The notes: generated from the letters alone by a model not told the origin. A stretch of 64,000 nucleotides of DNA from Candidatus Rokuibacteriota bacterium (GCA_003220315.1 QHSA01000145.1:1087-65086), one strand, 5' to 3'. Positions 19,710-40,443 are shown, counted from the first letter of the stretch. Made by a program: numbers and translations.

Positions 19710-19716
19710 CGCCGGC

Positions 19717-20469
19717 ATGAGCGTCCTCCGCTCGCGCTTCGTCCAGGCCGTCGTCATCCTCGTCGGCGCCTTCCTGGCGCTGCGCTTTGGCATCCGTCCG
19801 CCGGCGCCCTGGAGCGTGATCCAGATCTACATGGCGGTGGTGTTCCTGGCGGTGCTTATCTTCGTCTCCTCCGACACGGACTCGTGGCGCTCCTTCGTGA
19901 ACCCGATGCGCGCCGCGCTGGTCGACCCGAGCCAGCGGCCAGTGCGCATCGTGCTCGCGGTCGCGCTGCCGATCCTGCTCGGCTACTACGCCTACACGCA
20001 GGCGGCGGCCAGGCCGCAGGCGCCCGCCGAGCTGCGCGCGGTGCATCCGGCGCCGCCGGGCTCGATCCAGTTCCGGGGCAAGGAGATCAACATCGCGGGC
20101 GTCGACAACCCGCTCCGCAAGGACGTGGCGACCTTCAAGAGGAACGTCGCGGCGGGCGGCGAGATCTACGTTCGGAGCTGCATGTTCTGCCACGGCGACA
20201 ATCTCGACGGCCACGGGCTCTTCGCCTCCGCGCTGAACCCGCCGCCGGCGAATTTCGAGGACCCCGGGACGATCGCGATGCTGCAGGAGTCGTACCTCTT
20301 CTGGCGGATCGCCAAGGGCGGGCCGGGGTTGCCCAGGGAATCGACGCCGTGGAACTCGGCGATGCCGGCGTGGGAGGATCGCCTGACCGAAGAGCAGATC
20401 TGGCAGGTCATCGCCTATCTGTACGACGCGACCGGCCAGGAGCCGCGGCGCTGGGAGACGGCGCACTGA
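19717..20469 (+). CDS. Membrane-bound monohaem c-type cytochrome (two N-terminal TM helices plus class-I cytochrome c domain).
   Basis: One CxxCH (CMFCH) with a downstream Met ligand context. Confidence 0.8.
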   Translation: MSVLRSRFVQAVVILVGAFLALRFGIRPPAPWSVIQIYMAVVFLAVLIFVSSDTDSWRSFVNPMRAALVDPSQRPVRIVLAVALPILLGYYAYTQAAARPQAPAELRAVHPAPPGSIQFRGKEINIAGVDNPLRKDVATFKRNVAAGGEIYVRSCMFCHGDNLDGHGLFASALNPPPANFEDPGTIAMLQESYLFWRIAKGGPGLPRESTPWNSAMPAWEDRLTEEQIWQVIAYLYDATGQEPRRWETAH

Positions 20470-21941: not shown

Positions 21942-22023
21942 TAGTGCGAGCCGAGCGGCGGCCGCGGAGGCTCGGCGACGCGCGCCGCGAGGCGAGTCTG
22001 AGAACCCAGTAGTGCGAGCCGAG
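21942..22023 (+). promoter_or_regulatory. Direct repeat TAGTGCGAGCCGAG x2 (68 bp apart) flanking a GCCGAGC...GCTCGGC hairpin upstream of the cupredoxin-like gene; candidate operator/terminator region.
   Basis: Repeats at 21942..21955 and 22010..22023 seen directly. An AAGGAG Shine-Dalgarno sits 7 nt before ATG 22054. Confidence 0.3.
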
Positions 22024-22053
22024 GCGAGCGGACGAAGAAAAGGAGTCAGAGCA

Positions 22054-22752
22054 ATGCGGAGAGCACTCGGAGTCGTCCTGGCGGCGGCGCTCGTCGCGGG
22101 CGTCGCGCTGTTCGTCCAGCGCCCCGACCCTGTGGACGCCCAGGGAGGGGGCACCGTCGAGGTCACGGTCACGTATAACGGCGCGCCCGTCGTCGAGAAG
22201 CTCAAGGTCAACAAGGACACCGAGAAGTGCGGGACCGAGGCCGTGATCGAGAAGGTCGTGGTCGGCGGCAACAAGGGCCTGGCCAACGCGGTCGTCTCCG
22301 TCCCGACCGCCAAGGGCGCGCCGAAGATGGCGAAGGCGACGGTCGACCAGCATGGCTGCAAGTTCGTGCCGCACGTGACCGCGATGACGCCGGGCGACCT
22401 CGAGCTCAAGAACTCCGACGACATCCTGCACAACATCCATACGTACTCGACGGCAAACCCGTCCATCAACAAGGCGCAGCCGAAGTTCAAGAAGGTGATG
22501 ATGGAGAAGTTCGAGAAGCCCGAGATCATCAAGCTCACCTGCGACGTGCACAGCTGGATGCTCGGCTGGGTGGCGGTCCTGCCGACCCCGTTCTTCGCGG
22601 TCTCGGACGCCAGCGGCGCGGCCAAGATCGAGAACGTGCCGGCGGGCAAGCAGACCGTCGAGGTCTGGCACGAGACGCTCGGCAAGCAGACGAAGGAGGT
22701 CGACGTCAAGGCGGGCCAGGTGGTGAAGGTCGGGTTCGAGATGAAGAAGTAG
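22054..22752 (+). CDS. Secreted cupredoxin-like (type-1 copper motif) protein, paralog 1.
   Basis: Signal peptide. Conserved HNxH ... CDVHSWM (Cys-x2-His-x2-Met) ligand spacing as in amicyanin-type blue copper proteins. Strong Shine-Dalgarno at 22054. Paralogous to 29227..30036. Confidence 0.6.
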   Translation: MRRALGVVLAAALVAGVALFVQRPDPVDAQGGGTVEVTVTYNGAPVVEKLKVNKDTEKCGTEAVIEKVVVGGNKGLANAVVSVPTAKGAPKMAKATVDQHGCKFVPHVTAMTPGDLELKNSDDILHNIHTYSTANPSINKAQPKFKKVMMEKFEKPEIIKLTCDVHSWMLGWVAVLPTPFFAVSDASGAAKIENVPAGKQTVEVWHETLGKQTKEVDVKAGQVVKVGFEMKK

Positions 22753-22771: not shown

Positions 22772-23419
22772 ATGCTCGACTGGTGGCTGCCAGAGAACGT
22801 GTCGACGTACGGAGCGGAGATCGACTGGCTGTTCCATCTCATCTACTACATCACCGGCGCGACGTTCGTCCTCGTCTTCGTCACGATGCTCGTGTTCATC
22901 GTGATGTACCGCGACCGGCCCGGGCGGACCGCGCGGTACACGCACGGCAACACCCCGCTCGAGATCGCGTGGACCATCGTGCCGGCGCTGATCCTCGTGA
23001 TCCTGACGGCCCTCAGCGTGCCGGCGTGGTCGAGGATCAAGATGCAGGTACCGGCGAGCGACTTCGACGTCAACGTGACGGCGAAGCAGTTCAACTGGCA
23101 GGTCGGCTACCCGGGGAGCGACAAGGTCTTCCTCGACGAGATGCACGTGCCGGTCAACAAGGTCGTCCGGGTGCACCTCAGGTCGCAGGACGTGATCCAC
23201 AGCTTCTTCGTCCCGCAGTTCCGCATGAAACAGGACGCGGTGCCGGGCCGCGAGATCGTCCAGTGGTTCGAGGTGGTCAAGCCGGGCAAGTACGAGTGGC
23301 CGTGCGCGGAGCTGTGCGGGTTCGGCCACTCCGGGATGCGCGGCTGGATCTACGTGCACACGCCCGAGGACTACGCCAAGTGGGCGGCCGAGAACCTTGA
23401 GGGAAAGGGCAAGCAATGA
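22772..23419 (+). CDS. coxB: Cytochrome c oxidase subunit II (no fused cytochrome c domain).
   Basis: Two TM helices and CuA centre (H...CAELCGFGHSGM). Confidence 0.95.
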   Translation: MLDWWLPENVSTYGAEIDWLFHLIYYITGATFVLVFVTMLVFIVMYRDRPGRTARYTHGNTPLEIAWTIVPALILVILTALSVPAWSRIKMQVPASDFDVNVTAKQFNWQVGYPGSDKVFLDEMHVPVNKVVRVHLRSQDVIHSFFVPQFRMKQDAVPGREIVQWFEVVKPGKYEWPCAELCGFGHSGMRGWIYVHTPEDYAKWAAENLEGKGKQ

Positions 23420-25170
23420 GCGCCACCAGCGCGACCGCGCATGCGCACGTCGAGCCCGCCGGGCACCACGAGCTCGGTTTCGTCCGGACCTACATGTTCT
23501 CCACGGACCATAAGATGATCGCCCGGCAGTTCCTGTTCCTCGGGCTCTCCATGATGATCATCGGCGGCCTGCTGGCGCTGGTCGTCCGCTGGGAGCTCGC
23601 GTGGCCCGAGACGCCCGTGCCAGGGCTGGGGATGATCCTCACGGAAACCGGGGGGATCCTCGAGCCCTCGCAGTACAACATGGCGTTCACCATGCACGCG
23701 ACGATCATGATCTTCTTCGTGATCATGCCGATCCTGGCGGGCGCCTTCGGGAACTTCTGCATCCCGCTGATGATCGGCGCCCGTGACATGGCGTTCCCGT
23801 TCCTCAACATGCTGTCGTTCTGGGTCGCCGCGGTCGCCGGCGTGCTCATGCTCGCCGGCTTCTTCGTGCCGGGCGGCCACGCCGCCGCGGGGTGGACCTC
23901 CTACGCACCGCTCTCCGCCGTGCCGGAGTACACGGGAACGAACTGGGGGCAGAACCTCTGGTGCATCAGCCTCTTCGTCCTCGGCATCTCGTCGATGATG
24001 GGCGCGATCAACTACATCACGACGATCATCAACATGCGGGCGCCGGGCATGAAGCTCTTCCGGATGCCGCTCGTGGTCTGGTCGCTCTTCATCACCGCGA
24101 TCCTGCTCTTGCTGGCGCTGCCGGTCCTCACCTCGGGCGTCGCGATGCTCCTGTTCGATCGCACGCTCGGGACGAGCTGGTTCAAGCCGTCGGGCGGCGG
24201 CGAGCCGCTCCTCTGGCAGCACCTCTTCTGGTACTTCGGTCACCCCGAGGTGTACATCCTGATCCTGCCCGCGATGGGCATCGCCTCGGAGATCCTCCCG
24301 GTCTTCTGCCGCAAGCCGATCTTCGGCTACCACGCGATGGCGTTCTCGATGATCGCCATCGCGTTCCTCTCGTGGGTCGTCTACGGCCACCACATGTTCG
24401 TGAGCGGCATGAACCCGGCGCTCGGGATGGCGTTCACCGTGACCACCATGATCATCGCCGTGCCGTCGGCCATCAAGACGTTCAACTGGCTCGGCACGCT
24501 CTGGGGCGCCCGGATCCAGTTCACCGTGCCGATGCTGAACGCGCTCGCGTTCGTCTCGATGTTCGTCATCGGCGGGCTCTCGGGTATCTTCATGGCCTCG
24601 ACGCCGGTCGACATCTACATCCAGGACACGTACTTCATCGTCGCGCACATCCACTACGTCGTCTTCGGCGGCTCGATCTTCGGTGCGTTCGCGGCGATCT
24701 ACTACTGGTTCCCGAAGATGTTCGGCCGGATGACGAACACGGTCCTGGGGCACCTCCACTTCTGGCCGACGTTCGTCTTCTTCAACCTCACGTTCTTCCC
24801 GATGCACATCATCGGCGTCGGTGGCCAGATGCGGCGCATCTACAACCCGATGCAGTACGAGTTCCTCCAGCACCAGCAGCACTGGAACGTGTTCATCACG
24901 ATGTCGGCGCTCGCTCTCGGCCTCGGGCAGATCCCCTTCGTCATCAACTTCTTCTGGTCCCTCTTCGCGGGGAAGAAGGCGCCGCTGAACCCATGGAACG
25001 CGAACACGCTCGAGTGGACCGCGGCGTCGCCGCCGCCGCACCTGAACTGGGGGCCGACACTGCCGACGGTGTACCGCGGCCCGTACGAGTACAGCTCACC
25101 CGAGTCCAGGGACGACTGGCTGCCGCAGACCGCGCCGCCGGTCACCGCCGCGGGAGCGCGGCGCCACTGA
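23416..25170 (+). CDS. ctaD: Cytochrome c oxidase subunit I (A-family haem-copper oxidase).
   Basis: 12-TM protein with WFFGHPEVY and haem/CuB His ligands. ATGA overlap with coxB. Confidence 0.95.
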   Translation: MSATSATAHAHVEPAGHHELGFVRTYMFSTDHKMIARQFLFLGLSMMIIGGLLALVVRWELAWPETPVPGLGMILTETGGILEPSQYNMAFTMHATIMIFFVIMPILAGAFGNFCIPLMIGARDMAFPFLNMLSFWVAAVAGVLMLAGFFVPGGHAAAGWTSYAPLSAVPEYTGTNWGQNLWCISLFVLGISSMMGAINYITTIINMRAPGMKLFRMPLVVWSLFITAILLLLALPVLTSGVAMLLFDRTLGTSWFKPSGGGEPLLWQHLFWYFGHPEVYILILPAMGIASEILPVFCRKPIFGYHAMAFSMIAIAFLSWVVYGHHMFVSGMNPALGMAFTVTTMIIAVPSAIKTFNWLGTLWGARIQFTVPMLNALAFVSMFVIGGLSGIFMASTPVDIYIQDTYFIVAHIHYVVFGGSIFGAFAAIYYWFPKMFGRMTNTVLGHLHFWPTFVFFNLTFFPMHIIGVGGQMRRIYNPMQYEFLQHQQHWNVFITMSALALGLGQIPFVINFFWSLFAGKKAPLNPWNANTLEWTAASPPPHLNWGPTLPTVYRGPYEYSSPESRDDWLPQTAPPVTAAGARRH

Positions 25171-25175
25171 AACGG

Positions 25176-26069
25176 GTGAGGGCGGTGGCGCACCGAGTGG
25201 CGCTCGTCACGCTGGCGGCGACGTTCGTGCTGATCCTCTTCGGGGGGCTCGTCACGAACACGGGCTCGGCCCTGGCGGTGCCGGACTGGCCGAGCACGTT
25301 CGGCGACAACCTCTTTGTGTTTCCGTGGTCCCAAATGGTTGGCGGGATCTTCTACGAGCATGGCCACCGGCTCATCGGCGCTCTCGTGGGGCTCTTGACA
25401 CTCGGCCTGGCCGCGACGCTCTGGCGCACGGGTGGGCGGCTCCGCTGGCTCGGCCTGGCCGCCGTCGCGGCCGTCGTGGCCCAGGGCGTGCTCGGCGGGC
25501 TCCGCGTGGTGCTCCTGGCAGACACGCTCGCGATCGTCCACGGGAGCCTGGCCCAGGCGTTCTTCGGATTGCTCTCGGCGATCGCGCTCCTCACCTCGCG
25601 CGCGGCGGAGCGCCCACCGGGGGACGTGGACCCGTCGCTGCGCTCACTGACGCTCGGCGCCGCCGGCCTCGTGTACCTTCAGATCGTGCTCGGCGCCCTC
25701 TTGACGCACGCGGGCTGGCTCGCGCTCCATCTCGCGGGGGCCGTGGCCGTCTTCGCGGTCGTGCCGACCGTGACCGCTCGGCTCCGGCGGAGCGCTGATA
25801 CCGTTGCCGCCCCCGTCGCCCGGACGCTCCTTGCGCTGCTGGGCGTCCAGCTGTTCCTCGGCGTCGGGAGCTACCTCGCGCGATTCTCGCCGATCGGGAT
25901 CCCGGGCGGGCAGACGACGATGCTCGTTCTGCCGGTCGCCCATCGGCTCGTCGGAAGCCTCATCTTCGGCGCCACGGTGGTGCTCGCCGTGCGTGTCGGC
26001 TCGCGGGTCCCGGAGGTGACGGTGGGACGGGAGCGGGGCCGGGTCGCGCCTCCCGTGAGCGCGACATGA
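25176..26069 (+). CDS. ctaA: Haem A synthase (CtaA/COX15 family); start codon uncertain (GTG 25176).
   Basis: Eight-TM protein with paired His residues in the HxxxR/HR contexts typical of CtaA. Begins 6 nt after the ctaD stop. Confidence 0.7.
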   Translation: MRAVAHRVALVTLAATFVLILFGGLVTNTGSALAVPDWPSTFGDNLFVFPWSQMVGGIFYEHGHRLIGALVGLLTLGLAATLWRTGGRLRWLGLAAVAAVVAQGVLGGLRVVLLADTLAIVHGSLAQAFFGLLSAIALLTSRAAERPPGDVDPSLRSLTLGAAGLVYLQIVLGALLTHAGWLALHLAGAVAVFAVVPTVTARLRRSADTVAAPVARTLLALLGVQLFLGVGSYLARFSPIGIPGGQTTMLVLPVAHRLVGSLIFGATVVLAVRVGSRVPEVTVGRERGRVAPPVSAT

Positions 26070-27007
26070 AGAACGGAGCCGGGGCGCGCCTCGACGGCGG
26101 CCTCGCGGTGTCGGCTCCCACGGTCATGGCCGCCTCGATCGCGCGCGAGCGACGCCGGGTCCTCGCCGACCTGGTCGCCCTCGCCAAGCCGCGGGTCGTT
26201 CTCATGATCCTCGTGACGGCGGCCGTGGGCTATTACGTCGGGCTGGCGGGCGCGCCGGACTACGCGCGACTGCTGCACCTCCTGGTCGGCACGCTCCTGG
26301 CGGCGGGCGGATCGCTCGCGCTGAATCAGTACTGGGAGCGCGACGTCGACGCGCGCATGGAGCGCACCCGGGCGCGGCCTCTGCCCGACGGCCGGCTCGC
26401 GCCGCTCGAGGCGCTCCTGTTCGGGAGCGCCCTCACGGCCCTGGGCCTCGTCTACACCGCCGTGTTCATCGGCGGGCTCGCGCTCGGCGTCACCGCCGCG
26501 ACCGCGGCGCTCTACCTGTTCGTGTACACGCCGCTGAAGCTCAGGACGCCGCTCTGCACGCTCATCGGCGCCGTGCCCGGGGCGCTCCCGCCCGTGACGG
26601 GCTGGGTGGCGGCCCGTGAGGACCTGGGCGTGGGCGCCTGGGTCCTGTTCGGGATCCTCTTCCTCTGGCAGCTCCCGCACACGCTCGCGATCGCGCGGCT
26701 CTATCGTGACGACTACGCCCGCGCCGGCGTCCGTCTGCTGCCGGTCGTGGACGCCGAGGGAAGCAGCACCGAGCGGCAGATCGTGACGGGGTGTCTCGCG
26801 CTCCTCGTCGTGAGCCTCCTGCCGACGCTGATCGGGCTCGCGGGCGCGGTCTACTTCGTCGGGGCGTTCCTGATGGGAGCAGCGTTCGCCGCGCTGGGCA
26901 CCTGGCAGGCGTTCGTGCCCTCGACCGGCTCGGCGCGCCGCGTGCTCCTCGCGTCGCTCCTCTACCTGCCAGCGCTCCTGGCGCTCCTGGCGTTCGACAA
27001 GGCATGA
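26066..27007 (+). CDS. ctaB: Protohaem IX farnesyltransferase (haem O synthase CtaB/CyoE).
   Basis: UbiA-family motifs (NQYWERDVDARMERTRARPL; D-rich) and 8-9 TM helices. ATGA overlap with ctaA. Confidence 0.9.
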   Translation: MKNGAGARLDGGLAVSAPTVMAASIARERRRVLADLVALAKPRVVLMILVTAAVGYYVGLAGAPDYARLLHLLVGTLLAAGGSLALNQYWERDVDARMERTRARPLPDGRLAPLEALLFGSALTALGLVYTAVFIGGLALGVTAATAALYLFVYTPLKLRTPLCTLIGAVPGALPPVTGWVAAREDLGVGAWVLFGILFLWQLPHTLAIARLYRDDYARAGVRLLPVVDAEGSSTERQIVTGCLALLVVSLLPTLIGLAGAVYFVGAFLMGAAFAALGTWQAFVPSTGSARRVLLASLLYLPALLALLAFDKA

Positions 27008-27201
27008 CGACGCTCATGGACCCCCGTTGGAATGAAGAGCGACACGAAGAGCGGAGCCGGGTCGCACCTCGTCTCGGGCCACCCACCGACCGCACCGGGC
27101 TCGCGGACCCCGCTACAACAGCCCGCCAGACACTCCGGGTCCTGCTCATGATCATCGCGGCGCTCGTCGTCGCGTCGTTCCTCGTGGGGATCCGCTGGTG
27201 A
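27004..27201 (+). CDS. Small (65 aa) single-TM protein translationally coupled between ctaB and coxC.
   Basis: ATGA overlap with the ctaB stop and GTGA overlap with the downstream start. C-terminal hydrophobic helix. No recognisable family. Confidence 0.4.
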   Translation: MTTLMDPRWNEERHEERSRVAPRLGPPTDRTGLADPATTARQTLRVLLMIIAALVVASFLVGIRW

Positions 27202-27881
27202 CGCAGGGGCTCCTCGAGGCGCCGCCCAAGCGCGGGCCGGTCACGGACCGGCCGAACGGGCCCGTCGGGCCACCACCCCCGCCGACGGGCGGCGGCGACG
27301 GGCCGGACCGCGAGCCGTCGCCGCGGCGACCCGTGCTCGACAATATACAGTTGGCCGTCCTCTTCCTGATCGGCGGCGAGGTGATGTTCTTCGCCGCGTT
27401 GATCGCGGCGCTCTTCGTCACGCGGCTCGGTCAGCCCCTCTGGCCGCCGCCGCACCAGCCGCGGCTCCCCGTGGGCGTCACCGGCGTCAACACGCTCGTG
27501 CTCCTCGCCTCGAGCGTCATGATGGCGCGCGCCGTCGGTGCGCTCGCGCGCGGCGAGGAGAGCCGTCTGGTGAAGCGGCTCGCCGCCACGGCTGGCCTCG
27601 GCGCGCTCTTCCTGCTGGTCCAGGGCTACGAGTGGGCACGCCTGATCGGCTTCGGGCTGACGGTCTCGGCCGGCACCTACGGCGCCACCTTCTACACGCT
27701 GATCGGCGCTCACGCCGCGCACGTCTTCGGGGCCCTGGTCTGGCTCTCGGTGACGCTGGTGCTCGCCTCCCACGGCCGCTTTGCGCACGGCCGGACGGCG
27801 CCGGTGAAGGCGTGCGCGATGTTCTGGCACTTCGTGGTCGGGCTGTGGCCGATCCTCTACGTCGCGGTCTACCTGCTCTGA
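27198..27881 (+). CDS. Cytochrome c oxidase subunit III family protein (paralog 1, with Pro/Gly-rich N-terminal extension).
   Basis: 5-TM core with conserved subunit-III helices (YEW, HxxH). Confidence 0.75.
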   Translation: MTQGLLEAPPKRGPVTDRPNGPVGPPPPPTGGGDGPDREPSPRRPVLDNIQLAVLFLIGGEVMFFAALIAALFVTRLGQPLWPPPHQPRLPVGVTGVNTLVLLASSVMMARAVGALARGEESRLVKRLAATAGLGALFLLVQGYEWARLIGFGLTVSAGTYGATFYTLIGAHAAHVFGALVWLSVTLVLASHGRFAHGRTAPVKACAMFWHFVVGLWPILYVAVYLL

Positions 27882-27933
27882 GCGCTGCCGTGAGCCCGGC
27901 GCGCAACGACCACGACACGCTCAAGGAGACGAT

Positions 27934-28551
27934 ATGAGCCCGTCAGCCTCCGTTCACTCGGCCATCGAGCCGGCCGAGACACCGCTCACACCCGAGAGCT
28001 GGGGCAAGCTCGGCATGTGGATCTTCCTGGCCGGCGACGCCGTCGGCTTCGGCGTCCTGCTGGCGTCCTACGGCGGGATGCGGGCGACGAGCGCCGACTG
28101 GCCGAACCCGTACGACGTCCTCGGGATCAACCTGACCGCCGCGATGACCTTCCTTCTGATCTGCTCGAGCGTCACGATGGTCAAGGCGCTCGAGTGGCTG
28201 GGCGGGGGCGACCGGACCAAGTGCCGGATGTTCCTCTTCTTCACCGCGCTCGGCGGCGCGATCTTCGTGTGCTGCCAGGCCTACGAGTGGTCGAAGCTCA
28301 TCCACGAGGGGCTCCACATCAACGGCAACCCGTGGGGCGCGTCGCTCTTCGGCACGTCCTTCTTCCTCATCACGGGGTTCCACGGCCTGCACGTCACCGG
28401 CGGCGTCATCTACCTCGTCTCGATCATCCGGTACGTCACGAACCGCCCGTCGCCGGCGGCCAGCTACAACGCCGTCGAGATCACCGGGCTCTACTGGCAC
28501 TTCGTCGACCTCGTGTGGATCATGGTGTTCACCTTCATGTATCTCATCTAG
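27934..28551 (+). CDS. ctaE: Cytochrome c oxidase subunit III (paralog 2).
   Basis: Subunit-III motifs (FFLITGFHGLHVTGG, YWHFVD). Confidence 0.85.
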   Translation: MSPSASVHSAIEPAETPLTPESWGKLGMWIFLAGDAVGFGVLLASYGGMRATSADWPNPYDVLGINLTAAMTFLLICSSVTMVKALEWLGGGDRTKCRMFLFFTALGGAIFVCCQAYEWSKLIHEGLHINGNPWGASLFGTSFFLITGFHGLHVTGGVIYLVSIIRYVTNRPSPAASYNAVEITGLYWHFVDLVWIMVFTFMYLI

Positions 28552-28563
28552 GGGGCCGAGGCG

Positions 28564-28893
28564 ATGGCGGGCGCAGAGCACAAGCACCCCAACTACATGG
28601 CGATCTTCTGGTACCTCGCGATCCTCACGGCGATCGAGATCGCGGTGATCTACGCGCCCCTGCCGAAGGTGACGATCGTCGTCCTCCTGTGCGGGCTCGC
28701 GCTCGGCAAGGCCGCGCTCGTGGCGATGTACTTCATGCACCTCCGGTTCGAGACGCGCACGCTGGGCCTGGTCGCGATCACCCCGCTCATGATCGCGACG
28801 CTCCTGGTGTTCCTGCTCCTCCCGGACGGCCTGGCCGTCGCGAAGCGCACGGTGGGCGTGAAGGCCGCCGTGAGCGCGCCCGCCAAGCACTGA
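28564..28893 (+). CDS. Cytochrome c oxidase subunit IV (prokaryotic CoxD/CtaF-type).
   Basis: About 109 aa, three hydrophobic helices, position directly after subunit III. Confidence 0.7.
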   Translation: MAGAEHKHPNYMAIFWYLAILTAIEIAVIYAPLPKVTIVVLLCGLALGKAALVAMYFMHLRFETRTLGLVAITPLMIATLLVFLLLPDGLAVAKRTVGVKAAVSAPAKH

Positions 28894-28924: not shown

Positions 28925-29293
28925 ATGGCGCGCGAGCGTCGAGCGGTCCGCGTGCGGCGGGCCTTCGGGCGGGCGGCGCGCCTCCTGTGTCCCCGGTGCG
29001 GCGCGGCCCCGATGTTCCGAGGCTGGTTCCGGATGGCGCCCGTCTGCTCGGCCTGTGGTCTCCGCTTCGAGCGGGCGCAGGGCTACTTCGTCGGCGCGAT
29101 CTACCTCAACTACGCGGTGACGACGTTCCTCGTGATCGGAGGTTACGTCCTGCTCTGGGCGTTCACGGAGCTCACGACCGCGGCGCAGCTCGCCCTGTGG
29201 CTCCCCGTGGTCGTCGTGTTTCCCCTGTGGTTCTTCCGCTACAGCCGGAGCTTCTGGCTCGCCCTCGAGTACGCCGTCAACCCCGAGTCCTAG
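28925..29293 (+). CDS. DUF983-family protein (zinc ribbon CPRCG...CSACG plus two TM helices).
   Basis: Cys4 ribbon followed by a hydrophobic C-terminus; the family is recurrently encoded in cox operons. Confidence 0.65.
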   Translation: MARERRAVRVRRAFGRAARLLCPRCGAAPMFRGWFRMAPVCSACGLRFERAQGYFVGAIYLNYAVTTFLVIGGYVLLWAFTELTTAAQLALWLPVVVVFPLWFFRYSRSFWLALEYAVNPES

Positions 29294-30036
29294 CGGCGGT
29301 CCTCCTGGCGGCGCAGGCGCTCGGCGCGCCGGGCGTCGGCGCGGCGTACGAAGTCGTCGGCGTGGCGGACGGTGGCGCCGTGACCGGGACCCTGAAGTTC
29401 ATCGGCACGCCACCCAAGCTCGAGCCGATCCCCGTCAACAAGAACCGGGACGTCTGCGGCGAGTCGAAGCCGTCCGAGGCGCTCGTGCTCGGCCCCGACC
29501 ACGGCGTCAAGGGCGGTGTCGTGATGCTCGAGGGTGTCGCCCGCGGCAAGAAGGGAAGCGGCGACGTGCTCCTCGACAACCACAAGTGCCTGTTCGTCGC
29601 CCACGTCACGGCGGTGAGCCTCGGCGGGCGCGTCCACGTGAAGAACTCCGACCCGGTCCTCCACAACACTCACGGGTTCATGGGCAAGCCGACGGTCTTC
29701 AACGTGGCCCTGCCGAACAAGGACCAGCTGATCGATGTCACGCGGCGGCTCGCGAAGCCCGGCGTCGTCCACGTCCTGTGCGACGCCCACACGCACATGG
29801 CCGCGTGGATCCTCGTCCACGACAGCCCCTACGTCGCCGTCACGGACGAGCGCGGGGTCTTTCGGATCGCCGACGTCCCCCCGGGGACCTACAAAGTCAC
29901 GATGTGGCACGAGGGCTTCCGGGGGAGGGGCGTCGACAAGGACGGCCGGCCGGTGTACGAGGAGCCGCAGACGGTCACGAGAGAGGTGACGATCGCGCCC
30001 CGCGCGGTGGCGACGGTCGACTTCGAGCTGCGATAG
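29227..30036 (+). CDS. Secreted cupredoxin-like (type-1 copper motif) protein, paralog 2; start uncertain (GTG 29227 overlaps the DUF983 3' end).
   Basis: Same conserved HNTH ... CDAHTHM (C-x2-H-x2-M) pattern as 22054..22752, with signal-peptide-like hydrophobic N-terminus. Confidence 0.55.
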   Translation: MVLPLQPELLARPRVRRQPRVLAAVLLAAQALGAPGVGAAYEVVGVADGGAVTGTLKFIGTPPKLEPIPVNKNRDVCGESKPSEALVLGPDHGVKGGVVMLEGVARGKKGSGDVLLDNHKCLFVAHVTAVSLGGRVHVKNSDPVLHNTHGFMGKPTVFNVALPNKDQLIDVTRRLAKPGVVHVLCDAHTHMAAWILVHDSPYVAVTDERGVFRIADVPPGTYKVTMWHEGFRGRGVDKDGRPVYEEPQTVTREVTIAPRAVATVDFELR

Positions 30037-30045: not shown

Positions 30046-31941
30046 ATGTTCAAGCACATCTGCGTTCCGGTGGACAACTCGGACTACTCGAACCGGGCGA
30101 TCGAGCTCGCCGTCGAGTTGGGCCGGACCTGCGGCGCCAAGCTCACCGGCGTCCACGTGTACGCGGCGCAGCTCCACGACTATCGGTTCAAGCAGATGGA
30201 GTACACCCTGCCGGACGAGTACAAGGACGAGCACGAACTCGAGCGACAGCGAAAGATCCACGACTCGCTGATCGCCATGGGCCTGCAGCTCATCTCCGAC
30301 TCCTACCTCGACGTGATGGCCCGGCGTGCCGAGACGGCGGGGCTCGCCTTCGAGCGGAAGCTGATCGACGGCAAGCACTACAAGGTCCTGATCGAGGACT
30401 GCCTCGCCTCCGACTACGACCTGGTCGTCATGGGCGCCCTCGGCATGGGCGCCGTGAAGGACAGCCAGCTCGGCTCGGTGACCGAGCGCTTCGTCCGGAA
30501 GGTCCCGAAGGACACGCTGGTCGTCAGGAACGCCGATCGACTCTCGGATTCGCCGGGCGCCATCGTCGTGGGCCTCGACGGCTCGCCCCAGTCCTTCAAC
30601 GGCCTCAGGCTCGGCATCGGCCTCGCCAAGGCCCTGGGCCGCCCGCTCCAGGCGGTCGCGGTCTACGATCCGTACCTCCACTATGCGATGTTCAACGGGA
30701 TCGTCGGCGTGCTGAGCGAGAAGGCGTCGAAGATCTTTCGATTCAAGGAGCAGGAGCAGCTCCACGAGGAGATCATCGATACAGGATTGGCCAAGATCTA
30801 CCAGTCGCACCTTGAGATCGGTCGCAAGCTCGCCGCCGAGGACGGCGTCGACCTGGCGATCACCCTGCTCGACGGGAAGTGTTTCGAAAAGGTTCTCACG
30901 TTCGCCCGCAAGGCGCAGCCGTGGCTCTTGATCCTGGGGCGGGTCGGGGTCCACTCGGACGAGCACGAGGTAGACCTCGGCTCGAACACCGAGAACCTCC
31001 TGCGGCTCCTGCCCTGCAACGTGCTCCTGACGGGCGGCAAGTTCTACCCACCGCTCGACGTCCGGGCCGAGGAGATCATCTCCTGGACCGAGGAGGCCGA
31101 GGCGCGCATGGAGCGCGTGCCGCCCCAGGTGAAGGGCGTGGCGCGCACGGCGCTGCTCCGGTACGCGATCGAGCAGGGCCACACGGTCATCACGAACAAG
31201 GTCATCGACGAGGCGATGGCGATCTTCATGCCGGCCCGGATGGCCGAGAAGATGCAGATCCTCGCGGAGGATCTCGCCGTGGCGAAGCTCCGCGCCGAGG
31301 CGCAGGTCGCGACGGCGATCTGTTCGGTGTGCGGCTACACGGTCAAGGGGCCGAACCCGGTCGTCACGTGCCCGGTCTGCAAGGCGTCCGCCGACAAGTT
31401 CCAGGTGATCTCCCGGGAGGCGGTCGAGACGATCGCCACCCAGGAGGGCGGCATCGAGGAGGAGGAGTCGATGCCGGGCGTGCGGGTGAAGTGGTCGGCC
31501 GACGCGCGCGACGCGCTCCGCGAGGTGACGGACGCGTACCTCCGCCGGCGCGCCAAGGCGCGGATCGAGAAGTACGCGCGCTCGCGGAAGATCCCCGTCA
31601 TCACGTGTCAGCTCGCGCTGCCGATGATCGAGGAGACGGTGGGCCGCGAGAAGCTGGGGGCGGGCTGGGACACGCTCCTGGCGAGGACGCGGTTCGAGCC
31701 CGCCCAGGCGCCGGCGGTGGAGGGGAGCGGCTTCGTCTGGACCGAGGAGGCCACCGCGCGGCTCGGCCGTGTGCCCGCCGGGTTCATGCGCGACATGACG
31801 CGCGAGGAGGTCGAGCGCGTCGCGACCGAGAAGGGCGCGACGACGATCGACCTCGCGCTCTGCGAGGAGGGCATCGGGCACGCGCGGCAGACGATGAACG
31901 AGGTGATCGCGGGGTACGTCTCGAGCAAGAAACCTCGCTAG
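30046..31941 (+). CDS. Multidomain protein: tandem universal stress protein (UspA) domains, three PCP_red-like (protochlorophyllide reductase B C-terminal-like) repeats and a central Cys4 zinc ribbon.
   Basis: Two USP-fold halves (residues about 1-330). Three repeats matching W-x-EA...IP-x-FVRG...E-x-YA...G...IT at about 340-395, 485-540 and 575-625. CSVCG...CPVCK ribbon. Confidence 0.75.
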   Translation: MFKHICVPVDNSDYSNRAIELAVELGRTCGAKLTGVHVYAAQLHDYRFKQMEYTLPDEYKDEHELERQRKIHDSLIAMGLQLISDSYLDVMARRAETAGLAFERKLIDGKHYKVLIEDCLASDYDLVVMGALGMGAVKDSQLGSVTERFVRKVPKDTLVVRNADRLSDSPGAIVVGLDGSPQSFNGLRLGIGLAKALGRPLQAVAVYDPYLHYAMFNGIVGVLSEKASKIFRFKEQEQLHEEIIDTGLAKIYQSHLEIGRKLAAEDGVDLAITLLDGKCFEKVLTFARKAQPWLLILGRVGVHSDEHEVDLGSNTENLLRLLPCNVLLTGGKFYPPLDVRAEEIISWTEEAEARMERVPPQVKGVARTALLRYAIEQGHTVITNKVIDEAMAIFMPARMAEKMQILAEDLAVAKLRAEAQVATAICSVCGYTVKGPNPVVTCPVCKASADKFQVISREAVETIATQEGGIEEEESMPGVRVKWSADARDALREVTDAYLRRRAKARIEKYARSRKIPVITCQLALPMIEETVGREKLGAGWDTLLARTRFEPAQAPAVEGSGFVWTEEATARLGRVPAGFMRDMTREEVERVATEKGATTIDLALCEEGIGHARQTMNEVIAGYVSSKKPR

Positions 31942-31956
31942 TCGGGCTGTGGGCAT

Positions 31957-32059
31957 GGGGGGCTCCGCCGGAATCCGACTGCGCTCCGTGCGCACGTCCG
32001 ACGTTCTCTGCACGAGGCGAGGGCAACGCTGACGACAACGGATTCCGCCGGAGCCCCCC
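31957..32059 (+). repeat. Long imperfect hairpin: 21-nt arms (GGGGGGCTCCGCCGGAATCCG / CGGATTCCGCCGGAGCCCCCC, one mismatch) with a 61-nt loop.
   Basis: Arms seen directly in the 138-bp spacer between the USP/PCP_red gene and the radical SAM gene. Confidence 0.45.
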
Positions 32060-32079
32060 ACACCCCCAGCGGGAGCGGC

Positions 32080-33480
32080 ATGTCTCTGCCTGCGAGGCCC
32101 ACCCCTTCCACTCCTCCGCCATCGCCACCGCCGTCGTCCACATCCCCGCCGACCGGCGCGGTCAGTCCGTACACGGCGTACAGCGTGTCGTGGAACCTGA
32201 CACAGCGGTGCAACCTCGAGTGCGCGCACTGCTACATGTCGGCGTTCGCGGGCGCCGACACGCGAGGGGAGCTCACCACCGGCGAATGCCGTCGCGTGCT
32301 GGACGAGATCGCCCAGGTCAACCCGAACGTGTTCTTGATCCTCACCGGCGGCGAGCCGCTCCTGCGGCGCGACATCTGGGAGATCGCCGCCTACGCCGCC
32401 GAGAAGCGGTTCACGACGGTCCTCGGCACCAACGGCGTGCTGCTGGGCGAGCGCGAGGCGCGACGCATGCGCGAGCACGGGGTGCTGGGCGCGTCGATCA
32501 GCCTCGACTCCACCGACCGCGTCAAGCACGACGCGTTCCGCCACCTGCCGGGCGCCTGGGACGGCGCCGTGCGCGCCACGCGGGTGCTCGGCGATGCGGG
32601 CCTCGACTTCTCGCTGCACATGTCGGTGACGGACTGGAACGTCGGCGAGATCCCCGCGATGATCGACCTCGCGAGGGCGCTCGGGGCGAAGGTCCTGAAC
32701 TTCTTCTTCCTCGTGCGGACGGGCCGGGGGCGGGACCTCACCGACGTCGACGCGACCGCCTACGAGCGGATCCTGACGTCCCTGGCAAAGGCTCAGAGCG
32801 TCGGCGGCACGGCCGCCGGGAGGTTCGAGGATCCGTGGTCGGCGCCGGTGGGCCGCGCGGACGGCCTGCTCATCCGCGCCAAGTGCGCCCCGCACTTCAG
32901 GCGAATCCTCTGGCAGCAGAACCCGTCGTCACCGCTCCTCCAGAACTACGCCCACGGCTCGTGCCCCGCGGGGAAGTACTACTGCCGCATCACGCCCGAG
33001 GGCGACGTGACGCCGTGCCCCTACATGCCGGTGGCGGCGGGGAACCTCAGGACCGCGAGCTTCGCCGAGCTCTGGCGCGGGGCGCCGGTCTTCGACAACC
33101 TGCGCGACCCGAAGCTCGGCGGCCGCTGTGGGGCGTGCGAGTTCTCGAAGATCTGTGGCGGCTGCCGGTGCCGCGCTTACGCGACGTACGGCGACTACCT
33201 CGCGGAGGATCCCGCGTGCGGCTACGCGCCCGGGGCCCACGGCGGAGCGGTCATCGAGCTGCCCGCGACGGTCACGTTCGGACTGCCGGTGGCGTGGGAG
33301 CTCGCGTGGGATGCGGACGCGCGCGAGCGGCTCCAGGCGATCCCGTCCTTCGCCCGCGGGATGGTCGTCAAGGCGGTCGAGGCGTATGCGCGCGGGCGCG
33401 GAGACGCCGTCGTCACGCGGGAGCTCTTGGCCGAGGTCCGGGCGAAGTGGGGCGGCCGGTTCCGGCCGTCGCGCCCGTGA
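32080..33480 (+). CDS. Radical SAM/SPASM-domain enzyme of the NirJ/AhbC/AhbD (tetrapyrrole-modifying) family with C-terminal PCP_red-like domain and Pro/Ser-rich N-terminal extension.
   Basis: SWNLTQRCNLECAHCY (CxxxCxxC) hallmark of the NirJ/Ahb family, C-terminal Cys-rich SPASM region (CPAGKYYC ... CGACEFSKICGGCRCRA) and a terminal PCP_red repeat (WDADARERLQAIPSFARGMVVKAVEAYARGRGDAVVT). Confidence 0.85.
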   Translation: MSLPARPTPSTPPPSPPPSSTSPPTGAVSPYTAYSVSWNLTQRCNLECAHCYMSAFAGADTRGELTTGECRRVLDEIAQVNPNVFLILTGGEPLLRRDIWEIAAYAAEKRFTTVLGTNGVLLGEREARRMREHGVLGASISLDSTDRVKHDAFRHLPGAWDGAVRATRVLGDAGLDFSLHMSVTDWNVGEIPAMIDLARALGAKVLNFFFLVRTGRGRDLTDVDATAYERILTSLAKAQSVGGTAAGRFEDPWSAPVGRADGLLIRAKCAPHFRRILWQQNPSSPLLQNYAHGSCPAGKYYCRITPEGDVTPCPYMPVAAGNLRTASFAELWRGAPVFDNLRDPKLGGRCGACEFSKICGGCRCRAYATYGDYLAEDPACGYAPGAHGGAVIELPATVTFGLPVAWELAWDADARERLQAIPSFARGMVVKAVEAYARGRGDAVVTRELLAEVRAKWGGRFRPSRP

Positions 33481-33905
33481 CCACGGTCGAGCGACGATTC
33501 CGCCAGGCCGCGTGGACGTACCTCGGCTACGGCATCGTGTACTGGGTCACCGCGCTCTATCTGCAGCTCGCGGTCTTCCCGGTGCGCGGCCGGCCGCTCT
33601 TCTGGTTCGGCGTCGGCGCGCTGATCGCCGTGGGCGTCCCCCCGCTCCTCTACCGCCCGCGCCGGTGGTTCGAGCGCTGGGTGCTCTCGCGGCGCGACCT
33701 CGCCCGGATCCTGGCGGTCCTGGTCGCGGTTCGCGCGCTCTTCGTCGCGCGCCTCGCGCTCGTCGGCGCCGAGTCGATGCGCATGCCGACCTTCGGGGGC
33801 GCGGTGCCGCCGAGCCCGGCCGCCGCCTGGCTGATGGCGCTCGTCGCCGCCGTGACCGCCGCGATGCTGGCGCGCGCGGCGTGGTCCTCCGAAGGCGCCG
33901 CATGA
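33477..33905 (+). CDS. Small integral membrane protein (about 142 aa, 3-4 TM), translationally coupled.
   Basis: GTGA overlap with the radical SAM stop and ATGA overlap with the Mrp start. Hydrophobic helices. No family recognised. Confidence 0.5.
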   Translation: MTTVERRFRQAAWTYLGYGIVYWVTALYLQLAVFPVRGRPLFWFGVGALIAVGVPPLLYRPRRWFERWVLSRRDLARILAVLVAVRALFVARLALVGAESMRMPTFGGAVPPSPAAAWLMALVAAVTAAMLARAAWSSEGAA

Positions 33906-34762
33906 AGAAGTACAAGGACATCGCGGGAGACGGCGGCTCGAACATCGTCGCCCAGGTCGAGGCCCAGCAGCGGAGGCTCAGGGCGCGTCTCGCCACCGTC
34001 CGCGCCGTCGTCGCGATCGTGTCGGGTAAGGGCGGCGTCGGCAAGTCGTCGCTCACCGCGAACCTCGCCTGCTGCCTGGCGCAGGCCGGCCTCCGGGTCG
34101 GCGTCCTCGACGCAGACCTCAACGGGCCCACGATGGCGAAGATGCTCGGCGTGCGCGGCCAGCGCCTCGTCCTGGCGTCGGGTGGCGTCGAGCCGCCGCG
34201 GACGTCGCTCGGCGTCAAGGTGATGTCCATGGACCTGCTGCTGCCGTCGGACTCGGCCCCCCTCCAGTGGAACGCGGTGACCCAGGACGAGGCCCATACC
34301 TGGCGCGGCTCGATGGAGGCGAGCGCGCTCCGCGAGTTCCTCACGGACACCAACTGGGGCGAGCTCGACCTGCTGCTGCTCGACCTGCCGCCGGGCACGG
34401 ACCGGCTCCTCACCATCGCCGCGCTGGTGGAGCGCCTGGCGGGGACCGTCGTCGTCACGATCCCGTCGGATGTCTCGCACCTCGTCGTGAGGAAGGCCAT
34501 CACGGTGGCGAGCCAGGTGAAGGCGCCCGTCCTCGGCCTCGTCGAGAACATGGCCGGGCTCTTGTCCGGCCCCGATGCCGCGCTGCTCGCCCGCGACGCG
34601 GGCATCCCCCTCCTCGGGCGTGTGCCCTTCGACCCGGCGCTCGCCGCCGCGGCGGATCGCGGCGAGCCCTTCGTCGCGGTCGCGCCGGAGAGCGCCGCCG
34701 CCCGCGCGCTCGTCGCGCTGGCGGCCGAGATCCAGGCGAGGATCACGGCGCCCGCGGCGTGA
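33902..34762 (+). CDS. Mrp/NBP35/ApbC-family Fe-S cluster carrier ATPase.
   Basis: Deviant Walker A GKGGVGKSS, ParA/MinD fold and CxxC-type carrier region. Confidence 0.85.
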   Translation: MKKYKDIAGDGGSNIVAQVEAQQRRLRARLATVRAVVAIVSGKGGVGKSSLTANLACCLAQAGLRVGVLDADLNGPTMAKMLGVRGQRLVLASGGVEPPRTSLGVKVMSMDLLLPSDSAPLQWNAVTQDEAHTWRGSMEASALREFLTDTNWGELDLLLLDLPPGTDRLLTIAALVERLAGTVVVTIPSDVSHLVVRKAITVASQVKAPVLGLVENMAGLLSGPDAALLARDAGIPLLGRVPFDPALAAAADRGEPFVAVAPESAAARALVALAAEIQARITAPAA

Positions 34763-34778
34763 GCTCCGTGTCTGCCTG

Positions 34779-35288
34779 GTGGTGACATCGACGCCGAAGT
34801 TCTGCAGCGCCTGCGGCGGCCGGCTCGCGGTCGTGCGCGAGGAGGGACGCTCGCGGCGGCGCTGCCGGCGCTGCGGCTTCACCGTCTACGGCAACCCCGT
34901 CCCGACGTCCGTCGCCCTCATCATGCGGGGCGGACGCGTCCTCTTGACCCGCCGGGCGCGCCCGCCCTACGCGGGGACCTGGGACGTGCCCGGTGGATTC
35001 CTCGAGGCGGGGGAGCATCCCGAGGCGTGCCTGCGTCGAGAGCTGCGAGAGGAGCTGGGGATGAGGGTCCGCCAGGCCCGGCTCCTCGATTTCGCCCTCG
35101 ACCGCTACGGGCCGAAGGGGTTTCCGCTGCTCACGCTCGTCTACCGGGTGACGCCGGCGCCTGGTCGCCTCACACCCGGGGACGACGTGAGCGAAGCGCG
35201 ATGGTTCCCGCGGAAGGCGATCCCGTACCATGCGATCGCGTTCCGAGGGCTGCGCCGCCTCCTGCGGCGCCGGATCAGCGGCAGGTGA
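34779..35288 (+). CDS. NUDIX hydrolase with N-terminal zinc ribbon (NudC-like, lacking the NudC N-terminal domain); GTG start.
   Basis: CSACG...CRRCG ribbon, then Nudix box GGFLEAGEHPEACLRRELREELG. Confidence 0.7.
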   Translation: MVTSTPKFCSACGGRLAVVREEGRSRRRCRRCGFTVYGNPVPTSVALIMRGGRVLLTRRARPPYAGTWDVPGGFLEAGEHPEACLRRELREELGMRVRQARLLDFALDRYGPKGFPLLTLVYRVTPAPGRLTPGDDVSEARWFPRKAIPYHAIAFRGLRRLLRRRISGR

Positions 35289-35970
35289 CGCCGGGCTCCA
35301 GCCGGTAGTTGGCGATCTGGAAGGTCTTGACGAAATCGTCCTCCCACGCCTGGATCGAGAGCCGCCCGAGCGGTGTCTCGCCGTCGAACCCGAAGACCGA
35401 GGCGCGTGCCCCCAAGTCGCGCAGCTTGACACCGCCGGCGATGTACGCGGCGACGGTCGGCCGGTCCGCGAAGACCGCGATCGTCTCGCGCACCGGCTGC
35501 GTCCCGGGCTGGCTCGTGGGCTTGAGCCAGTCGACGATGACCGTAAAGCCGTCGACGAGAGAATCGGTGACCAGCTCCGCGCGCTGAGTCATGCGTCGCA
35601 GCATGGGACCGACGTAACGGGAGAACATCGCGGCGGCGCGCCCGTCCATCTTCAGTGAGGCGAACTGGGGCGACGTCTCCTGGTCGACGTAGATCCGGAG
35701 CGAGAGATACCGGTCGTCTTTGGACGGGACCAGGTGCTTCGGCCGGAAGAAACCGATCGACTCCTTGGAAACCTCCAGCCAGGGCAGGCAGTGATAGATC
35801 CCCGCGTTGAGGTCGCGCAGCGCGGGCGCGTACTTCCGCGCGAGCGTGCGCGCCTTCTCGGACGTGTACTGGTCGACGGCGAGGATGCGGTCGTCGGGCG
35901 GCGCCGCGACGGCGCGCCCGACGACAATGAGGCCGAGCGCCAGGGCTGCCGTGAGCAGCCTAACGCTCAA
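35275..35970 (-). CDS. Secreted hypothetical protein (signal peptide, about 231 aa).
   Basis: Cleavable N-terminal signal sequence. Coding-like composition. No family recognised. Convergent with the Nudix gene. Confidence 0.5.
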   Translation of the reverse strand: MSVRLLTAALALGLIVVGRAVAAPPDDRILAVDQYTSEKARTLARKYAPALRDLNAGIYHCLPWLEVSKESIGFFRPKHLVPSKDDRYLSLRIYVDQETSPQFASLKMDGRAAAMFSRYVGPMLRRMTQRAELVTDSLVDGFTVIVDWLKPTSQPGTQPVRETIAVFADRPTVAAYIAGGVKLRDLGARASVFGFDGETPLGRLSIQAWEDDFVKTFQIANYRLEPGVTCR

Positions 35971-39897: not shown

Positions 39898-40443
39898 ATG
39901 CTGAGAGTCCTGGCGACCCTCCTGATCTCGCTCACATTCGCGGCGGCCGCATCCGCCCAGCTCATGGACAAGAAGGCCCTCACCCTCGACGGCGCCAAGA
40001 AGCTCGCGGCGGCCGCCGAAGCCCAGCTCATGGACAAGAAGGCCCTCACCCTCGACGGCGCCAAGAAGCTCGCGGCGGCCGCCGAAGCCGAGGCGACGAA
40101 GAACAACTGGCGCGTGGTCATCGTCATCGTCGACGACGGCGGCCATCTCGTCTACCTCGAGCGGATCGACGACACGCAGACGGGCAGCATTGACGTCGCC
40201 ATCGCGAAGGCGCGAGGCGCGGTGGCCTACAAGCGTCCCACGAAGGTCTTCGAAGACGCGGTCACCGGCGGCCGGAACGTCATCATGGCGCTGCCCCACG
40301 CGATGCCGGTCGAGGGCGGGCTGCCGCTCGTCGTGGACGGCAAGCTCGTCGGCGGCATCGGCGTCAGCGGCGTCACCTCGCAGCAGGACGGGCAGATCGC
40401 CAAGGCGGGCGCGGACGCGCTGCCGAAGCTGCTCGGCAGGTAG
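39898..40443 (+). CDS. GlcG/HbpS-like haem-binding protein (DUF336) with signal peptide and an internal perfect 22-aa tandem duplication.
   Basis: C-terminal GGIGVSG motif of the GlcG family. AGGAG Shine-Dalgarno before the ATG. Confidence 0.75.
   Translation: MLRVLATLLISLTFAAAASAQLMDKKALTLDGAKKLAAAAEAQLMDKKALTLDGAKKLAAAAEAEATKNNWRVVIVIVDDGGHLVYLERIDDTQTGSIDVAIAKARGAVAYKRPTKVFEDAVTGGRNVIMALPHAMPVEGGLPLVVDGKLVGGIGVSGVTSQQDGQIAKAGADALPKLLGR
39955..40086 (+). repeat. Perfect 2 x 66-bp tandem direct repeat inside the glcG-like coding sequence (encodes AQLMDKKALTLDGAKKLAAAAE twice).
   Basis: Identical 66-mers at 39955..40020 and 40021..40086. Confidence 0.9.

Follow-up and report, generated by a model that had tools for sequence, protein, structure and literature searches.

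A candidate AhbD-type haem synthase with a fused PCP_red domain in a conserved, oxidase-linked gene module of Candidatus Rokuibacteriota

We analysed a 64,000-nt stretch of DNA from a soil Candidatus Rokuibacteriota bacterium (QHSA01000145.1:1087-65086; hereafter the window) and focused on a run of genes, designated G1 to G5, that follows the genes for an aa3-type oxidase and haem A synthesis (Table 1). G2 encodes a radical S-adenosylmethionine (SAM)/SPASM enzyme with its own C-terminal PCP_red domain. We give a probability of about one half to the reading that G2 is an oxygen-independent coproheme decarboxylase (haem b synthase) of the AhbD type, working with a tetrapyrrole lid and accessory proteins. 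Conversion of coproheme to haem b by G2 is favoured because its cluster motifs are identical to those of AhbD, because it is fused to the tetrapyrrole-associated PCP_red domain, because hemY adjacency recurs, because an obligate anaerobe carries the enzyme, and because its placement in Nitrospinota is lone and housekeeping-like. The module is probably known chemistry in a new architecture rather than necessarily a new haem modification. It is conserved in several environmentally important phyla and is both haem-linked and oxidase-linked.

The radical SAM enzyme G2 and its PCP_red domain

Pfam detected in G2 a Radical_SAM domain (77.8 bits), a SPASM domain (41.1 bits) and PCP_red (48 bits), and the radical SAM core carries the CX3CX2C motif. 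AhbD has a C-terminal CX2CX5CX2CX17C motif and three further SPASM cysteines, and holds two auxiliary clusters (PMC10452713). The motif is reproduced exactly in G2 (C350-x2-C353-x5-C359-x2-C362-x17-C380), and C269, C295 and C313 correspond to the first-auxiliary-cluster cysteines of Methanosarcina barkeri AhbD. The cysteines of the first auxiliary cluster (AuxI) are probably C269, C295, C313 and C362, and those of the second (AuxII) C350, C353, C359 and C380.

The best-scoring NCBIfam family for G2 was AhbD (TIGR04545; Methanosarcina barkeri, Desulfovibrio vulgaris), which likewise consists of a radical SAM domain and a full SPASM domain. Its score was 304 bits (304.4), followed by NirJ2 with 302 bits, whereas the peptide maturase families PqqE (115 bits) and MftC (154 bits) scored much lower. 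Homologues of G2 are labelled 'AdoMet-dependent heme synthase' by the Joint Genome Institute pipelines. An earlier note on this DNA, made from the sequence alone, had assigned G2 to the NirJ/Ahb family as a radical SAM-SPASM enzyme with its own PCP_red domain and had called the module tetrapyrrole-linked or haem-linked. Both statements agree with these scores and with the presence of genuine PCP_red domains in G1 and G2.

Two other assignments were tried for G2 and rejected. The score on NirJ of haem d1 synthesis (TIGR04051) was 196 bits against a cut-off of 515, and neither the window nor the examined loci revealed nir genes. The AhbD-like GMGT synthase (Gms) has an N-terminal COG4001 domain of ~100 aa that G2 lacks, the N-terminus of G2 being a 30-aa Pro/Ser-rich stretch, and the two fall in separate clades. 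This low-complexity start (aa 1-30, positions 32080-32169) differs in length among the close homologues, which are proteins of 433-503 aa and come, according to their record names, from Candidatus Rokubacteria/Rokuibacteriota (Methylomirabilota).

The PCP_red domains exceeded the Pfam gathering score (PF08369, 32.5 bits) both in G1 (93.9 bits) and in G2 (48 bits), confirming the earlier naming of these C-terminal repeats. Residues 407-459 of G2 matched PDB 2kru, and NCBIfam aligned the domains of both proteins with the C-terminal ~50 residues of BchB (about positions 459-530). The C-terminal region of BchB covers the protochlorophyllide cavity (PMC4071322). A tetrapyrrole-covering role of PCP_red is so far characterised only in BchB, an enzyme of the chlorophyll pathway. 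At the sequence level the domain matches that of BchB/ChlB of dark-operative protochlorophyllide reductase, with three copies in G1 and one in G2. However, the module has neither the nitrogenase-like core nor photosynthesis genes; its PCP_red units occur as repeats, on their own, or joined to Usp, Zn-ribbon or radical SAM domains, and their tetrapyrrole binding is putative. Literature searches on PCP_red (PF08369) together with radical SAM enzymes, or on AhbD in anammox bacteria, Nitrospira or Rokubacteria, returned no description of this module, which is likewise absent from the genome papers on Nitrospina and Manganitrophaceae.

An exhaustive search of representative sequences with G2 returned 1,090 cluster representatives at E<1e-30. 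About two dozen of these, with 40-50% identity to G2, keep the C-terminal PCP_red domain, in which W410, A414, P422, F424, R426, E434 and A437 (G2 numbering) are conserved. Some PCP_red-bearing relatives are 590-715 aa long and have two or three additional PCP_red units. A quick neighbour-joining tree of 116 core domains placed the enzymes with PCP_red in essentially one clade, apart from the core-only AhbD/NirJ2-like sequences and also apart from a clade with N-terminal extensions of 100-127 aa, which is probably Gms. The AlphaFold2 (AF2) model of G2 was confident (predicted local distance difference test, pLDDT, 91.6; predicted template modelling score, pTM, 0.90), with a SPASM fold and well-defined PCP_red helices (model residues 382-431).

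Partner proteins and gene neighbourhoods in relatives

The earlier note had read G1 as two Usp domains, three PCP_red domains and a Cys4 ribbon, and Pfam recovered all of them: Usp with 130 bits in two stretches, PCP_red in three stretches, and the rubredoxin-like RUBY_RBDX with 38 bits. The Usp domains belong to the ATP-binding class, with the fold and G-x2-G-x9-G-S in the first unit (aa 130-144) and an x10 variant in the second (aa 298-313). G1 shares 86-94% identity within Rokubacteria and 42-56% between phyla, and its N-terminal tandem Usp half is the best-conserved part across phyla. Residues invariant across phyla are H37, H44, R47, F48, M51, E52, Q68, R69, H72 and D73 in the first Usp unit and D208, P209, H212, F231-E237, H240, E241 and E242 in the second. 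These matching His/Glu motifs (aa 37-73 and 208-245) suggest a metal or haem site, which would be atypical for Usp proteins. The numbers of PCP_red and Cys4 units differ by lineage, and one Manganitrophaceae protein has five PCP_red units and three knuckles. No solved structure or curated family covering the architecture of G1 was found. Its AF2 model, for which a shallow alignment served as input, was of low quality (pLDDT 64, pTM 0.45) and was kept out of the fold search.

To survey gene neighbourhoods, a scan with one genome per species was used, which returned 80 full-length G2 loci, and every open reading frame in them was compared with the proteins of the window. The loci came from Methylomirabilota/Rokubacteria, Nitrospiria (including Manganitrophaceae), Poribacteria, Nitrospinota and Brocadia, with single loci labelled Gemmatimonadota and Binatia. 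A homologue search with a cross-phylum profile gave only Rokubacteria among the matches listed. Among Rokubacteria-type loci, 14 of the 15 that extend 2.5 kb or more upstream contain G1 and all 11 that extend 8 kb or more contain cox/cta genes; Mrp and G3 each occur in 17/21. G1 adjoined G2 in five of the six Nitrospiria loci, two of which had a bd-like oxidase/cytochrome c cluster and none aa3 genes. Within 10 kb of G2 in Poribacteria, we found G1 in 18, Mrp in 19 and COX3/COX4 (with ctaB) in 13 of 31 loci. The gene order beside cox/cta is therefore conserved in Rokubacteria and, more loosely, in Poribacteria. The recurrence of the same genes in dozens of genomes indicates an arrangement far beyond chance.

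Nine contigs of more divergent representatives (L002, L003, L084-L090) were also sampled. G2 was directly followed by a gene for a HemY-family oxidase in three of them, with G1 also present in L003 and L086 and G2 alone with HemY in L084; start and stop codons overlapped or lay 3 nt apart, and HemY of L003 scored 246 bits on TIGR00562 (cut-off 98). The gene order in L085 was Crp/Fnr, Mrp, Zn-ribbon plus PCP_red, Usp-PCP_red and G2. L087, L089 and L090 have G1 and G2 next to genes for cytochrome c/EB_dh, SCO1 and a bd-like oxidase; oxidase clusters of the bd-like type adjoin G2 in L017, L053, L027, L089 and L090. The conserved core is G1 plus G2, and its recurrent contexts are hemY, aa3/cta genes and bd-like oxidase clusters.

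The 20 Nitrospinota loci and Brocadia had no G1, Mrp or oxidase genes within 10 kb of G2. A general biosynthetic enzyme therefore fits better than an oxidase-specific one, and the carriage of G2 by Brocadia (L079), an anaerobe, is in line with oxygen-independent chemistry. The same loci bear on the proposal of the earlier note, an oxygen-independent, radical-based system that modifies haem or another tetrapyrrole and delivers it to the oxidase. In this reading the modification would be new and dedicated to terminal oxidases, for instance the anaerobic formation of a haem O/A-type or otherwise modified haem used by the aa3 or bd-like oxidase, and G1 and G3 would hand over the product. The tight linkage of the G1-G2 pair to aa3/ctaA/ctaB genes in Rokubacteria and Poribacteria and to the five bd-like oxidase clusters speaks for it, as do the separate clade of G2 below the AhbD cut-off and the presence of many PCP_red/rubredoxin accessory proteins beyond what AhbD is known to need. 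We nevertheless judge it unlikely, for oxidase genes, G1 and Mrp are missing within 10 kb of G2 in every one of the 20 Nitrospinota loci and in Brocadia, the hemY neighbour in three lineages indicates the core pathway, haem O/A synthesis is already covered by ctaA and ctaB, and the cysteine motif is that of AhbD. Nothing favours a new modification over the known AhbD reaction, and delivery to the oxidase by the module we infer only.

It is also conceivable, though improbable, that G2 is a SPASM-class protein or peptide maturase whose substrates or recognition partners are PCP_red-bearing proteins, with PCP_red as a docking domain instead of a tetrapyrrole lid; G1 and the small PCP_red/Zn-ribbon proteins would be the candidate substrates or partners. 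Many SPASM enzymes modify peptides, and the closest solved folds to G2 were PqqE, SkfB, SuiB and anSME, no structure of AhbD or NirJ being known. PCP_red units occur on the enzyme and its neighbours alike in nearly every lineage, and the extreme conservation of G1 would suit such a role. However, peptide maturases are all far more distant from G2 in sequence than AhbD/NirJ2 are, G2 has no conserved neighbour that resembles a short precursor gene, and there is no PCP_red partner within 10 kb of G2 in Nitrospinota.

A typical Poribacteria locus (L033) has the order ctaB, COX3, COX3, COX4, SCO1, G1, BamB-like propeller, Mrp, Zn-ribbon plus PCP_red protein, CopD/HemJ-superfamily membrane protein and G2, followed by a small PCP_red-like protein, a HEAT protein, DUF420 and a weak Chlor_dismutase/ChdC-like protein. 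All 31 Poribacteria loci and four Nitrospiria loci (L018, L020, L024, L025) encode the four-helix CopD/HemJ-superfamily protein next to the radical SAM enzyme. Its first transmembrane helix contains an invariant His (31 of 31 Poribacteria loci), and its gene lies at 9445-9948 in L033 and at 8505-9008 in L090. Downstream of the Poribacteria radical SAM gene (12777-14088 in L033), DUF420 was found in 5/31 loci.

G3 is the small membrane protein that the earlier note had placed after G2, and its gene follows the radical SAM gene in 22 loci. It matched no family and contains neither His nor Cys. Alignment of G3 with the CopD/HemJ-like membrane protein of Poribacteria and Nitrospiria by hhalign indicated that the two are unrelated (probability 0.4%).

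G4 was described earlier as an Mrp/ApbC Fe-S carrier that would load the Fe-S clusters. Its family holds: like the Mrp/ApbC/NBP35 carriers, G4 aligns with PF10609 over essentially the full profile (221 bits, positions 2-245 of 246) and contains the deviant Walker A motif GKGGVGKS, although it missed the ApbC and MrpORP cut-offs. Unlike those carriers, G4 and its close relatives lack the cluster-bridging CxxC motif, which is removed by an 11-residue deletion after VENM; C57 and C58 are the only cysteines of G4. The deletion is shared by the window and loci L001, L004-L013, L026 and L028, and five orthologues have no cysteine at all. Canonical binding of a bridging cluster is therefore excluded for G4, and an Fe-S loading role is doubtful in this genome. 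CxxC is kept in the same gene context in L016, L019-L021, L027, L029 and L085, which include deeper Rokubacteria, and in 19/19 Poribacteria loci with Mrp. Since distant orthologues keep the motif, the ancestral G4 was apparently a true Fe-S carrier. One gene context holds both Mrp orthologues that have the cluster-binding CxxC and others that lack it, which amounts to a natural experiment.

Of the NudC-like Nudix gene predicted to come next, the Nudix and Zn-ribbon domains of G5 were found, but the NudC label did not stand: G5 scored 59 bits against the cut-off of 158 of the NudC NAD+ diphosphatase family (NF001299), and the match was limited to these two domains. G5 is not a conserved member of the module (8/21 Rokubacteria loci and none elsewhere).

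Proposed reaction and the points that weigh on it

The domains, cysteine motifs, clade of G2 and conservation of its neighbourhoods were observed directly; the substrate of G2, the lid role of PCP_red and the roles of G1, G3 and G4 we infer as follows. The radical SAM cluster of G2 would cleave SAM to a 5'-deoxyadenosyl radical, which would attack the propionate side chains of Fe-coproporphyrin III by removing hydrogen. The electron would leave through the two auxiliary SPASM clusters, and both vinyl groups of haem b would arise by loss of CO2. A lid on the bound tetrapyrrole may be formed by the fused PCP_red helices, as in BchB. G1, with its nucleotide-binding Usp pair and a knuckle of the Fe(Cys)4 type, would be a dedicated partner that docks on or receives the tetrapyrrole via its PCP_red units, and it may carry an electron to or from G2, gated by its ATP state. 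G3 could be the membrane anchor of the system, where ctaB/ctaA turn haem b into haem O and A for the oxidase, and G4 may be an ancestral Fe-S carrier that is a Cys-less ATPase in this lineage. If G2 is a haem b synthase, its adjacency to ctaB/ctaA would amount to co-expression of the last three haem steps with the client oxidase.

AhbD replaces ChdC in organisms of the coproporphyrin pathway that have no other Ahb enzymes (PMC13564367). The reaction proposed for G2 is that of ChdC/HemQ, the H2O2-dependent coproheme decarboxylase; fold and chemistry are unrelated, and G2 would need neither O2 nor H2O2. ChdC/HemQ often adjoins hemY in Actinobacteria, and a hemY-type neighbourhood is likewise that of G2 in L003, L084 and L086.

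Several points weigh against assigning this reaction to G2. Its score of 304.4 bits misses the equivalog cut-off of AhbD (500 bits), and every other curated NCBIfam cut-off is missed as well; the nearest relatives without PCP_red are mostly below the AhbD cut-off too (277-405 bits). G2 also differs from AhbD in ~90 extra C-terminal residues, which are the PCP_red domain, in its separate clade, and in its companions, a Usp-PCP_red protein, a small membrane protein and an Mrp-like ATPase instead of ahbA, ahbB or ahbC. None of hemE, hemH, cgoX and ahbA-C lies in the 64 kb of the window, the part of the genome that was covered. A weak Chlor_dismutase/ChdC-like gene lies near G2 in 6/31 Poribacteria loci. 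Plain AhbD works without G1, and the elaborate PCP_red/rubredoxin partners are not accounted for. The scores below all cut-offs and the absence of ahb and nir genes nearby also mean that G2 is not an ordinary AhbD/NirJ orthologue of a siroheme/haem d1 cluster, a case that the earlier note had named as contrary to its proposal.

At a similar level of identity (36%), AhbD homologues that carry an added domain have been identified as lipid-modifying GMGT synthases (PMC11214058), so homology alone cannot fix the substrate of G2, which is a further point against the coproheme assignment. By this precedent G2 might act on a non-tetrapyrrole such as a membrane lipid or quinone, and the oxidase linkage would reflect membrane physiology. 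G2 is always accompanied by a small membrane protein, either G3 or the CopD/HemJ-like one, and in Nitrospinota a gene for a UbiE-type methyltransferase and one resembling FAD monooxygenases are among its neighbours. We regard such a substrate as very improbable. G2 and Gms both add one domain to an AhbD-like core, but the lipid-binding COG4001 domain of Gms is N-terminal and the PCP_red domain of G2 is C-terminal; the probable Gms clade is separate in the tree, and both the fusion to PCP_red and the hemY neighbours argue for a tetrapyrrole.

If G2 is the terminal haem synthase, the last haem step would be filled for major nitrogen-cycle and soil organisms, and haem manufacture at low or zero oxygen in the carriers would be explained. 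The carriers, all of them abundant and for the most part not in culture, comprise Rokubacteria, the nitrite oxidisers Nitrospira and Nitrospina, manganese oxidisers, anammox Brocadia and the sponge symbionts Poribacteria. The module offers a first testable non-photosynthetic role for PCP_red and defines G1 as a very highly conserved partner protein, and its link to bd-like oxidases gives a handle on the cofactor content of those oxidases. A wider proposal seems rather unlikely: that PCP_red is a general tetrapyrrole-handling domain outside photosynthesis, and that G1, G2, the small PCP_red/Zn-ribbon proteins and the membrane partner form a dedicated haem synthesis-and-handoff machine, or make a new modified haem, to supply the aa3 and bd-like oxidases of Rokubacteria, Nitrospirota and Poribacteria. 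The knuckle and His/Glu motifs of G1 might then act as a redox or haem-binding relay.

The locus and its surroundings

The G+C content of the window is ~70%. Analysis of G+C at third codon positions (GC3) for reading frames, together with Pfam, resolved a long single-strand gene array that runs from the bd-like oxidase genes through the aa3 genes to the module and ends at a convergent gene (35275-35970). Features are listed in Table 1. As the earlier note had stated, ctaA, ctaB and oxidase subunits lie upstream of the module; COX1, COX2, two COX3 and COX4 genes were found there.

Table 1. Features of the oxidase genes and the module in the window (positions counted from its first nucleotide).
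Feature	Position	Strand	Basis
bd-like oxidase subunit, two cytochromes c and dihaem cytochrome c fused to EB_dh	16830-21926	+	Pfam
bd-like oxidase subunit	16830-18656	+	weak Cyt_bd_oxida_I match
Dihaem cytochrome c-EB_dh fusion, C-terminal anchor	20469-21926	+	
Secreted CarboxypepD_reg protein, paralogue 1	22012-22752	+	
aa3-type oxidase and haem A genes: COX2, COX1, ctaA, ctaB, COX3, COX3, COX4	22772-28893	+	Pfam
ctaA	25170-26069	+	
ctaB	26066-27007	+	
Secreted CarboxypepD_reg protein with type-1-copper-like motif, paralogue 2 ('cupredoxin' of the earlier note)	29227-30036	+	
G1, 631 aa, soluble: tandem Usp, PCP_red, Cys4 rubredoxin-like knuckle, PCP_red, PCP_red	30046-31941	+	Pfam
G1 tandem Usp domains, aa 1-161 and ~173-329	30046-31032	+	PF00582
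G1 PCP_red repeat 1, aa 342-392	31069-31221	+	
G1 rubredoxin-like Cys4 knuckle, C426, C429, C442, C445	31321-31404	+	PF21349, 38 bits
G1 PCP_red repeat 2, aa ~483-527	31492-31626	+	Pfam and alignment
G1 PCP_red repeat 3, aa 565-607	31738-31866	+	
G1-G2 intergenic spacer, 138 nt, GGGAG ribosome-binding site 5' of G2 ATG	31942-32079	.	
G2, 466 aa: AhbD-like radical SAM/SPASM with C-terminal PCP_red	32080-33480	+	Pfam, NCBIfam
G2 radical SAM core, C44-x3-C48-x2-C51	32194-32670	+	
G2 SPASM region	32884-33219	+	
G2 PCP_red domain, aa 410-454, three-helix unit, confidently modelled	33307-33441	+	Pfam 48 bits, PDB 2kru match
G3, 142-aa membrane protein, four hydrophobic segments, GTG overlaps G2 stop	33477-33905	+	
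G4, Mrp/NUBPL-like P-loop ATPase without CxxC, ATG overlaps G3 stop	33902-34762	+	
G5, Nudix hydrolase with N-terminal Zn ribbon, probable start 34779/34782	34779-35288	+	Pfam

Four module genes had been described as chained by ATGA/GTGA overlaps. Overlaps are limited to G2/G3 (GTGA) and G3/G4 (ATGA), and G1, which ends with TAG (31939-31941), is separated from G2 by the 138-nt spacer. No RNA family matched this spacer, and Rfam and tRNA scans of the window gave no matches. A search for FNR/CRP boxes returned 14 matches, none in the relevant promoter regions, and a promoter and terminator scan found no signal above background. In a Rokubacteria relative (L001), a dienelactone-hydrolase-like gene (9195-10004) lies between G1 and G2 at the place of the spacer.

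The two CarboxypepD_reg paralogues flank the aa3 operon and share 31% identity. Both contain a type-1-copper-like HN(I/T)H...C-x2-H-x2-M pattern (HNTH in the second). The second is the gene that had been called a cupredoxin; Pfam sees only CarboxypepD_reg in it and a PDB sequence search gave no match, but the copper-like pattern makes the label plausible, if unproven. A small open reading frame of high GC3 (28925-29293) between COX4 and the second paralogue is probably the counterpart of the DUF983 gene found at the matching place in L001.

The 16830-21926 cluster, directly 5' of the aa3 operon, is similar to the terminal oxidase clusters of the TO_1 type in Nitrospirota, about which little is known. 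Divergent from the oxidase array, the minus strand (9652-16701) carries a protein quality-control cluster with ClpB, DnaJ, an HtrA/DegP-like protease and FtsH. A gene for an HbpS-like haem-degrading/binding protein (39898-40443) lies 4.6 kb 3' of the module, and a separate SCO1/SenC copper chaperone gene (52629-53360) is found further 3'.

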